DNA of 64,000 nt from a virus (Duplodnaviria > Heunggongvirae > Uroviricota > Caudoviricetes), in the IMG/VR virus record IMGVR_UViG_2617271072_000004, positions 32,001-96,000 of that record; one strand, written 5' to 3'. Below are positions 27,632-28,908 of this stretch, one piece after another. The notes under the pieces were generated by a model. The model had not been told where the DNA came from, made no database searches, and saw nothing but the letters and a program-made list of their open reading frames with translations. Every line of letters starts with the position of its first letter. The stretch's first letter is position 1. Both the position numbers and the translations under genes were made by a program.

Positions 27632-28606
27632 TTATCCGTTACCGCACGACGGTTTCTGCGTGATAAACGTCTCAAGCATCTTTTCCGCAATTGCCGACCA
27701 GGTGTGACACTGGACCTTTTCAGCATTTTTCACGCGATCAACGCGAGCAATAACCTCATCCCAATCAATCCGCGACTTGATAACCATATGGTTCACCAAA
27801 GCCAGGCGATCTGGCGGAAGGCAATCGGGAGGCGTTAATACCAACGCCCCGCACATTGCCGCCTCAAGTACAGTTAATCCAAGGCTTTCGGGATGCGTAA
27901 CGATAAAAACGTCACTCTTACGCAATTCAGCTGCAAATTCGGTTGCTGGCACCGGCGTCCGCCTGTATGGAGTTACCGAAATATTCCCCGGATCAATGGT
28001 AACCAATCCGTCATCAGTCAACGTTCTGGCCTCATACGGAACGGTCAGACGCTGAAGGTTCATAAGGATACTTAAGGAGTGATCAAAACCACTAACATCA
28101 AATGCAGCGTGGTCTACAAAAATACGCAGAACATCGTCCGTTTTGGTTTCCAGATGGAACAGCTCCTGATTCGCTGCCCATCCAACATGTTTGTTAAAGC
28201 GATTATGACGTTCTAACCGACCGGGATTATCCAGGTACCGCCAGGTATCATCGCGGACAGTAAAAGTAATATCGACTGGTGCCGAATCCAGCATAGAACC
28301 GTCATATACCTGGGCTACCCATCCAGAGAATCGGCGACACAGTTGCATGCCTATTTCCCTGGGTACCGTAGTAAAATACCTCAATCCTGGTGCCAAAATG
28401 GCCTTCGCAGAACATGCTGTCGCAGCAGTCAACACAGCTTCAACATAATCCTCGGGGCTTTCGACGCCAGGGGAATATGGACGATGGTATTGCAATGTTA
28501 CCCCAGCCTCACTAAAGGCGCAGGCCAGGTTGTAAGCCCACATTTCCGTATATGTTTTCACATCACTGATAGCTTCAAATTTTCGCCCAATGATCAGGAT
28601 GTTCAT
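27632..28606 (-). CDS. GT-B-fold glycosyltransferase (family 1/4-like, 324 aa)
   Basis: C-terminal FIVTHPESLGLTVLEAAMCGALVL (E-x7-E motif). Confidence 0.65.
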   Translation of the reverse strand: MNILIIGRKFEAISDVKTYTEMWAYNLACAFSEAGVTLQYHRPYSPGVESPEDYVEAVLTAATACSAKAILAPGLRYFTTVPREIGMQLCRRFSGWVAQVYDGSMLDSAPVDITFTVRDDTWRYLDNPGRLERHNRFNKHVGWAANQELFHLETKTDDVLRIFVDHAAFDVSGFDHSLSILMNLQRLTVPYEARTLTDDGLVTIDPGNISVTPYRRTPVPATEFAAELRKSDVFIVTHPESLGLTVLEAAMCGALVLTPPDCLPPDRLALVNHMVIKSRIDWDEVIARVDRVKNAEKVQCHTWSAIAEKMLETFITQKPSCGNG

Positions 28607-28908
28607 TGCGTCTCCTTTTCCCTGACTAAAAGCTCATCCAGCTTGCTTTTATGTTTGAGCACATAGCCACATATTTTTCCTTTGGAGCTAATTTGCGGAA
28701 TGGAATAATATTCCGAAAATACTAATTCAGCCTTTTCTAAGACAAGTGAAACACCATAGCGCGCAACATGTCTGTCGATCATTTTTGCATCACTGAGATT
28801 ACCTTTAATTGATAGCCAGTCGTTGAGGTACATATGGTTGCGATTGGCTTTTTTCAGCATGTCGCTCAACCAATTTTTATTACGCTTAGTTAGTTTCCGT
28901 TGCATCAA
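28603..28908 (-). CDS. hypothetical protein (101 aa) downstream of ban
   Basis: ORF coupled between ban and the glycosyltransferase. Confidence 0.5.
   Translation of the reverse strand: MMQRKLTKRNKNWLSDMLKKANRNHMYLNDWLSIKGNLSDAKMIDRHVARYGVSLVLEKAELVFSEYYSIPQISSKGKICGYVLKHKSKLDELLVREKETQ

Follow-up and report, generated by a model that had tools for sequence, protein, structure and literature searches.

The dbn gene of a P1-type phage-plasmid: a predicted GT-B glycosyltransferase that may act in virion glycosylation

The dbn locus

The gene considered here, dbn, lies in a 64,000-nucleotide (nt) stretch of a Caudoviricetes virus (IMG/VR record IMGVR_UViG_2617271072_000004, positions 32,001 to 96,000), referred to below as the window; coordinates are window positions unless another locus is named. 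Positions 27400-30400 are 98-99% identical in nt sequence to phages P1, P7, SJ46, RCS47, and JL22, and by this comparison the window is a P1-type phage-plasmid. An open reading frame (ORF) of 324 amino acids (aa) on the minus strand corresponds to P1 dbn (“downstream of ban”), with 98.5% aa identity over residues 1-324, and the DNA flanking it is 99% identical to P1 at the nt level. The features at this end of the ban operon are as follows:

27585-27611, no strand assigned: symmetric hairpin (GAAAAGCCCGG / CCGGGCUUUUC, 5-nt loop), candidate bidirectional terminator, found by folding
27632-28606, minus strand: dbn, predicted soluble GT-B (GT4-like) glycosyltransferase of 324 aa, last gene of the ban operon (ORF, P1 identity, Pfam, phrog_2518, AlphaFold2)
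27863-27889, minus strand: E-x7-E motif of Dbn (E240...E248), within the invariant block T-H-x-E-S-x-G...E (alignment of 61 homologues)
28603-28905, minus strand: ORF100, encoding a basic protein of 100 aa (isoelectric point, pI, 9.8) (ORF, reading of the junctions, phrog_12809)
28607-28894, no strand assigned: 288-bp segment replacing 13 bp of reference P1 and carrying ORF100 (blastn against P1, sequence comparison)
28905-30270, minus strand: ban (DnaB-type helicase), read as two ORFs through one extra A in an A-run at ~29826
33078-33105, no strand assigned: bivalent C1 operator (Oban / Op72) at the head of the ban operon, with 0 and 2 mismatches to ATTGCTCTAATAAATTT (P1 annotation)

Neither the gene nor its predicted function is new: the P1 record describes dbn as “function unknown, possible glycosyltransferase,” the P7 copy is named glt, RefSeq calls the RCS47 copy a “glycosyltransferase family 4 protein,” and annotators have inferred likewise from 2004 onward. 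The window gene resembles those for P1 Dbn (gp078, YP_006544) and P7 Glt in its neighbors (ban upstream, convergent gene 5 downstream), its operon, and its C1 operator, but differs in having a 100-aa ORF inserted between ban and dbn. It also differs in its start: the P1 annotation begins dbn 8 codons further upstream, giving 332 aa rather than 324.

Relatives of Dbn were collected by a search of 5.8 billion proteins, which gave 74 of 300-350 aa, down to 28% identity; 61 of these were aligned. All family N-termini in this alignment coincide at MNILIIG (window 28583-28630, minus strand; P1 locus L001 4180-4260), and the ATG of this motif follows a Shine-Dalgarno sequence, GAGGA in P1 and AAGGAG in the window. 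Because of the family alignment and the Shine-Dalgarno sequence, the 324-aa start is favored, and the start annotated for the 332-aa P1 protein is probably 8 codons too early.

Upstream of dbn the minus strand carries ORF100, ban, tRNA-Ile2, tciC, tciB, tciA, and tRNA-Thr and tRNA-Asn genes. Oban, which heads the operon, includes a perfect consensus half-site. The C1 operator consensus ATTGCTCTAATAAATTT is matched 13 times over the whole window at ≤3 mismatches, vs. 0.3 expected by chance; C1 operator-like sites are found, for example, at 300, 383, 16974, 19067, 19117, 22742, 33078-33105, 36611, 52073, and 53745. One of the tRNA genes, at 30557-30632 (minus strand), is called tRNA-Met (anticodon CAT) by ARAGORN and trnI (tRNA-Ile2, CAT anticodon) in the P1 record.

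A first-pass annotation of this DNA, made from the sequence alone, had placed a 324-aa protein with an E-x7-E motif at the end of a C1-controlled, minus-strand ban operon. The ORF at 27632-28606, the convergent gene 5 stop at 27585, and the bivalent operator at 33078-33105 agree with this, and E240 and E248 are invariant among the 61 homologues. It had also treated 27632-28908 (1277 bp) as a single gene; this interval holds two, the separate 100-aa ORF at 28603-28905 having been overlooked. Of the bidirectional terminator that it proposed, the symmetric hairpin is present between the convergent stops of gene 5 (27585) and dbn (27632), as a perfect 11-bp stem made of an A-tract, a GC core, and a T-tract, with a folding free energy (dG) of -18.1 kcal/mol on the plus strand and -17.6 on the minus strand (z-scores of -2.7 and -3.9, by direct folding). 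That it terminates transcription in both directions is a reasonable inference; a scan for consensus terminators did not list the hairpin at 27585-27611, probably because its T-run lies inside the stem.

Transcription of dbn would then probably stop at a hairpin shared with the convergent gene 5. As the last cistron of the C1-repressed ban operon, dbn would be expected to be made after derepression or infection, and not in a quiescent lysogen.

Fold and family of Dbn

The AlphaFold2 model of Dbn, made with the 61-homologue alignment, has a mean predicted local distance difference test (pLDDT) score of 94.7 and a predicted template modeling (pTM) score of 0.90, and consists of two alternating beta/alpha domains. 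A Foldseek search with this model gave 89 matches in the PDB at E≤1e-3; the best 50 are without exception sugar-nucleotide enzymes of the GT-B fold, for the most part GT4/GT5-type glycosyltransferases, with two UDP-GlcNAc 2-epimerases among them. The top matches include MshA, sucrose-phosphate synthase, GlgM, PimB', BshA, glycogen synthase, GtfC/Gtf3, and the glycosyltransferase of phage HY126. Among the viral models in BFVD there are 122 matches at E≤1e-3. The best of these is a glycosyltransferase of the giant virus Tupanvirus (template modeling score, TM, 0.80-0.82; E 3e-18; root-mean-square deviation 3.3 Å; 18% identity), which is far nearer to Dbn than any solved structure is.

The E-x7-E motif of Dbn is ESLGLTVLE (residues 240-248), with a conserved Arg216 upstream of it. 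Residues invariant in all 61 homologues are D102, W143, A144, D165, H166, D175, F234, T237, H238, E240, S241, G243, E248, and G253. Judging from the model, Dbn is almost certainly a glycosyltransferase of the GT-B fold, as the first-pass annotation had proposed; the comparison with the P1 dbn-ban region that it had called for leads to a gene already annotated as a possible glycosyltransferase, and not to one of some other function.

Assignment to a family within this fold is less straightforward. The retaining GT-B enzymes of CAZy family GT4 (MshA, PimB', BshA, GlgM, and sucrose-phosphate synthase; PF00534) share the two-Rossmann-domain fold with Dbn and likewise have a C-terminal E-x7-E with invariant first and last Glu, but the identity is only 10-14%, and they are about 360-440 aa long vs. 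324 for Dbn. Many GT4 enzymes have a glycine-rich loop following beta-strand 1 of the N-domain, a feature that is not strictly defining; the conserved Gly-Gly after strand 1 (MNILIIGRKFEAIS...) is absent in Dbn, where the family consensus in the 61-homologue alignment is xPxxxxxxxxI. Precomputed Pfam assignments list PF00534 for the 332-aa P1 cluster, and NCBIfam gives only faint matches, to a sucrose-phosphate synthase domain and MshA. In a sequence search against the PDB nothing was significant, the best relevant match being XcOGT at E 0.7. Dbn likely belongs to GT4, but the assignment is not a clean one, given the marginal profile score and the atypical loop in the N-domain.

The protein belongs to phrog_2518, is acidic (pI 5.5; N-domain pI 5.9), and has no hydrophobic or transmembrane segment. 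Just two loci of the family were found in 185,579 species-representative genomes, and it is almost confined to phage sequence. The Stenotrophomonas jumbo phages CM1 and RAS14 were considered as sources of homologues and set aside: the similarity is to the C-terminal domain only (26% identity), within a 552-aa protein with no PmgQ nearby, which was treated as a different glycosyltransferase.

Linkage of dbn to pmgO, pmgP, and pmgQ

Gene neighborhoods of Dbn homologues were surveyed in IMG/VR loci, by a scan led by a distant Dbn homologue, and in isolated phages. In all-against-all BLAST, very different phages proved to share the gene that comes directly after the Dbn homologue. By tblastn, the window encodes homologues of this gene (pmgQ) and of two genes upstream of the Dbn homologue (pmgP and pmgO):

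19135-19836, minus strand: pmgQ, predicted GT8-like GT-A glycosyltransferase of 233 aa (tblastn, AlphaFold2, Foldseek, phrog_1962 “glycosyltransferase”)
20507-21132, minus strand: pmgP, MptE/DUF115-like, a paralogue of pmgO (phrog_2111), frameshifted at a T-run at ~20625
21030-21693, minus strand: pmgO, sialyltransferase-like/MptE-like (phrog_4603 “alpha-2,3-sialyltransferase”), frameshifted at a T-run at ~21569
21835-21851, plus strand: C1 operator Oppp (Op83), upstream of pmgN-pmgO-pmgP-ppp-pmgQ; TATGCACTAATTAATTT, one change from the operator annotated in P1

Wherever a non-P1 locus has enough flanking sequence (L004, L006, L007/L095, L008, L009, L093, L094, L096, L097/L098, L099, L100, L156, L169, and L176), the Dbn homologue is followed on the same strand, within 0-700 bp, by a PmgQ homologue; this amounts to about 12 non-redundant cases. 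Homologues of PmgO and PmgP often come before the Dbn homologue. The whole PmgO-PmgP-Dbn-PmgQ block is found in four phages: a lambda-like one (L008, where an additional GT8-like gene separates PmgP from Dbn), a P2-like one (L009), and coliphages EP_H11 and IME392. The compact block of the lambda-like and P2-like contigs lies beside terminase and portal genes. Large phage contigs with RecA, helicase, and terminase genes have a block in which the Dbn homologue is accompanied by a cytidylyltransferase/cupin sugar-activation gene, a polysaccharide pyruvyl-transferase, a methyltransferase, and GT8-/GT47-like genes. Two of these expanded modules (L004 5190-11153 and L007 5136-11130) also include a second PmgQ paralogue and a conserved 230-aa protein.

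The set is divided in the P1 group alone: in P1, a distance of 6-8 kb separates dbn from its partners, and ppp intervenes between pmgP and pmgQ. A Citrobacter-type P1 relative (L106 10001-18775) has a dbn, with 58% identity, that does not adjoin ban. There dbn is followed by an ORF of 2312 aa whose N-terminus resembles an extended autotransporter signal peptide. A functional tie between dbn and ban was considered and rejected, as their linkage is not conserved outside the P1 group. Seen across these gene orders, the dbn-ban linkage is incidental, and it is the dbn-pmgQ linkage that is the conserved feature. The same gene orders make it quite probable that Dbn works with PmgO, PmgP, and PmgQ.

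The predicted properties of the partners are those of glycosyltransferase-like proteins. The AlphaFold2 model of PmgQ (pLDDT 95.1) has Skp1 alpha-GalT, glycogenin, WbbM, GlyE, and LgtC, all GT8-type GT-A enzymes, as its top Foldseek matches, and its D79-L-D81 (D-x-D) is invariant. PmgO and PmgP have weak Pfam MptE-like matches, a family that includes the Maf flagellin glycosyltransferases; PmgP also has a faint WaaZ_KDO_III match, and neither has a sequence match in the PDB. No hydrophobic segment was found in Dbn, PmgO, PmgP, or PmgQ, with maximum 19-residue Kyte-Doolittle means of 1.25-1.53. PADLOC gave no match for Dbn, ORF100, or PmgQ. A lone PmgQ homologue (L170 8001-8633; 49% identity) was also found on a Pantoea-type chromosome, between lpdA and acnB and with no phage genes nearby.

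In the P1 record, the pmg operon has a late promoter upstream, at pmgL, and abuts baseplate genes. C1 operators are present in both the ban and the pmg operons; dbn and its partners are therefore co-regulated by C1, and both operons are expected to be repressed in lysogens. All four genes were non-essential in a P1 CRISPR interference screen (PMC10695390).

These observations do not support the anti-restriction or exclusion role that the first-pass annotation had suggested for the gene: the conserved partners of Dbn are the glycosyltransferase-like PmgO, PmgP, and PmgQ, the PmgQ family is found within head-tail assembly operons (below), and both P1 operons have C1 operators.

A possible virion acceptor

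Several categories of acceptor can be imagined for such a set of enzymes. Modification of a virion protein is one possibility, suggested by where the PmgQ family is found outside P1. Four distant members on phage contigs were sampled for their context, and all four lie within head-tail morphogenesis operons:

L171: between the major capsid gene and head-closure genes, with a PmgO-like gene and a methyltransferase gene
L172: between capsid and tail genes, on a podovirus-like contig
L173: between Mu-F and a capsid gene, in a Mu-like phage
L174: between head-closure and gp10-like/tail-completion genes, with PmgO-like and PmgP-like genes and a methyltransferase gene

PmgO-/PmgP-like genes are present in two of the four contexts and methyltransferase genes in three. 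Genes placed within virion assembly operons usually encode parts of the particle or enzymes acting on it. The late promoter of the P1 pmg operon and the position of this operon against baseplate genes likewise point to the virion, whereas dbn itself is only convergent with baseplate genes.

On this reading, Dbn would be one step of a four-enzyme, phage-borne pathway of glycan assembly, with PmgO and PmgP starting the glycan and PmgQ and Dbn extending it. What is one contiguous block in other phages would in P1 be divided between two C1-controlled operons. Because the P1 module has no sugar-activation genes, host nucleotide sugars would be the donors. The most likely acceptor would be a virion structural protein, so that the particle would be decorated, much as mycobacteriophage capsids and tail tubes carry glycans, and plaque formation in the laboratory would not require this decoration.

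There is a precedent in the mycobacteriophages, which encode glycosyltransferases that attach glycans to the subunits of the capsid and tail tube (Freeman et al., 2023, as cited in PMC12619734 and PMC10877033). There, too, the glycosyltransferases are dispensable and are linked to structural genes, as PmgQ-family genes here lie among capsid, connector, and tail genes. The case proposed here differs in its Gram-negative hosts and in the MptE/sialyltransferase-like enzymes of the module. A second parallel is with the enzymes of serine-rich-repeat adhesins (Gtf3/GtfC, of the GT-B fold, and GlyE, a GT8 enzyme) and with Maf, in which the same combination of folds acts sequentially on a protein-linked glycan. 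Gtf3/GtfC is among the fold matches of Dbn, and GlyE and glycogenin are among those of PmgQ; the likeness is at the level of fold only, with 9-17% identity. These systems act on serine-rich or flagellin-like acceptors, and none was identified in P1.

A virion protein is favored as the acceptor because of the head-tail contexts, the mycobacteriophage precedent, the Maf link, and the several enzymes extending protein-linked glycans among the fold matches (Gtf3/GtfC for Dbn; GlyE, glycogenin, and Skp1 GalT for PmgQ). By these analogies, we hold this acceptor somewhat tentatively, a little short of an even chance; the explanation as a whole (a GT-B enzyme acting in a glycan module with PmgO, PmgP, and PmgQ on a virion acceptor) is the best available, and we would call it an even bet.

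Several observations weigh against it. The Pfam profile Glycos_transf_1 (PF00534) matches residues 221-307 only, in the C-terminal domain (E 1.5e-5; 25.1 bits vs. a cut-off of 26.4), and the N-terminal (acceptor) domain of Dbn has no sequence match to any characterized glycosyltransferase. In P1 and its Citrobacter-type relative, dbn lies 6-9 kb from pmgQ, and co-function in P1 therefore rests on the linkage seen in other phages. PHROGs places PmgQ in the category “moron / host takeover.” The block of the P2-like phage (L009 4349-11708) is directly after the portal gene and upstream of gpA, beside a gene for a 1354-aa KAP-family NTPase; this region is typically a hotspot for accessory or defence cargo. 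At another locus (L010), a Dbn homologue lies beside genes for a Wza/KpsD-type polysaccharide exporter (Poly_export/SLBB) and an MptE-like protein, a setting that points to a polysaccharide acceptor. Finally, a literature search found no report of glycosylated P1 virion proteins.

As a second possibility, Dbn, PmgO, PmgP, and PmgQ might remodel the envelope of the infected cell, adding sugars to the lipopolysaccharide (LPS) core or to some other glycan carried on lipid. The P1 receptor, which is the terminal glucose of the core, would thereby be masked, so that superinfecting phages would be excluded or fewer progeny lost on debris. The GT4, GT8-like, and WaaZ/Kdo-transferase-like families are those that build the E. 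coli LPS core, and the enzyme families of Dbn and the Pmg proteins match them; the faint WaaZ_KDO_III match of PmgP, the exporter and MptE-like neighbors at L010, the “moron” label of PmgQ, and the accessory position of the P2-like block beside the KAP NTPase all point in the same direction. However, with both P1 operons repressed by C1, lysogenic conversion is not expected, and P1 still adsorbs to P1 lysogens and debris. Large phages without signs of lysogeny in the regions read have the module too, alongside their own sugar-activation, methyl-, and pyruvyl-transferase genes, and the embedding of PmgQ-family genes in head-tail operons does not fit an envelope target. Gtr-type lysogenic conversion (GtrA/GtrB/GtrC) depends on a membrane-embedded transferase/flippase, in contrast to the four proteins here, which are without a hydrophobic segment. 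As a weaker argument, glycosyltransferases with membrane acceptors usually have a basic membrane-binding face, whereas Dbn is acidic and has no hydrophobic segment. An envelope role is on balance unlikely, if by no means fanciful.

As a third possibility, Dbn might glycosylate some other soluble acceptor, such as a host protein, a small molecule, or RNA, in host takeover or counter-defence and apart from the virion. Its position in an early C1-controlled operon with tRNA genes, tciABC, and ban would suit such a role, as would its acidic and soluble character; GT4 and GT8 relatives acting on small molecules or proteins include MshA, BshA, tetrahydrobiopterin glucosyltransferase, glycogenin, and Skp1 GalT. 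A conserved set of three or four different glycosyltransferases, however, suggests the building of an oligosaccharide and not a single transfer; there is no PADLOC match linking the module to known defence or counter-defence models, and the head-tail embedding of the partner genes would be left unexplained. We consider this improbable.

Glycosylation of a modified base in P1 DNA, as a guard against restriction, has very little to recommend it: dbn follows a replicative helicase gene, the large-phage modules lie near RecA and helicase genes, and the arabinosyltransferase of phage HY126 (9ir0) ranks fourth among the PDB fold matches, but this match (13% identity, TM 0.57) is no better than those to dozens of other GT-B enzymes, dbn is not beside a helicase gene in L106, L008, L009, or EP_H11, neither of the two P1 regions examined has an annotated gene for base hydroxylation or hydroxymethylation, and the partner family lies within virion assembly operons. 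The HY126 enzyme is a phage DNA arabinosyltransferase (PMC13326640). Dbn has its GT-B fold and phage origin in common with this and the other phage DNA glycosyltransferases (T4 alpha- and beta-gt), but differs in that no base-modifying partner enzyme is found in those two P1 regions and that its conserved neighbors are other glycosyltransferases, not nucleotide-modification genes. Cutting and cloning of P1 DNA are routine, and methylation is the only modification known in it.

The ban 3′ end and frameshifts in the window

The additional gene between ban and dbn is joined tightly to both: the ORF100 ATG shares bases with the stop codon of ban (TGATG), as does the ORF100 TGA with the start codon of dbn (ATGA), an arrangement that suggests translational coupling. 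Among the P1-like plasmids in PLSDB, 52 of 438 have ORF100; it is missing from all P1-group phage records, including P1, P7, and SJ46. A word-indexed search found only near-identical copies; an exhaustive HMMER search of 1.8 billion proteins gave six cluster representatives of the family, with 15 invariant positions at 34-40% identity. ORF100 has no match in Pfam, NCBIfam, PADLOC, or the PDB. Cronobacter phage JK004 has a DnaB with 83% identity to Ban; in this phage an ORF100 homologue directly follows dnaB, and other small ORFs come after it, but there is no dbn between dnaB and the convergent baseplate genes. The 3′ end of ban is, we infer, a slot for variable cargo in P1-like phage-plasmids, and ORF100 is a separate accessory gene there. 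Reference P1 has probably lost it, as the first annotated codons of P1 dbn (ATGCAATGGAA) resemble the start of ORF100 (ATGCAACGGAA).

Between 18.5 and 30.6 kb, the window differs from P1 by four single-base insertions or deletions (indels), all in A/T homopolymer runs. Those at ~29826, ~20625, and ~21569 split ban, pmgP, and pmgO, respectively, and the one at ~19078 alters operator Op86a. Not one of 434 P1-like plasmids has the ban indel. The four are most likely sequencing errors; the alternative that ban (and likewise pmgO and pmgP) is a real pseudogene was rejected, given the homopolymer position of all four and the uniqueness of the ban indel.

Implications

Some of what emerges is of direct use for annotation, namely the extra ORF100 and the corrected dbn start; a further product is the testable hypothesis of a dbn-pmgO-pmgP-pmgQ module. 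The comparative result ties dbn to pmgO, pmgP, and pmgQ, and thereby brings four non-essential P1 genes listed as unknown or putative under a single hypothesis, that of glycan assembly, most likely on the virion.

A broader and more speculative proposal, which we put forward as possible but doubtful, is that P1 and many unrelated tailed phages of Gram-negative bacteria carry an unrecognized, modular pathway of virion glycosylation, in which PmgO/PmgP (Maf/sialyl-/Kdo-transferase-like) would be the initiators, acting together with PmgQ and Dbn. If this is true, the classic coliphage P1 would make glycosylated particles, and its long-unexplained pmg genes and dbn would share one function. Virion glycosylation would then extend from the mycobacteriophages to an easily manipulated model coliphage, which would be relevant to phage immunogenicity and phage therapy.

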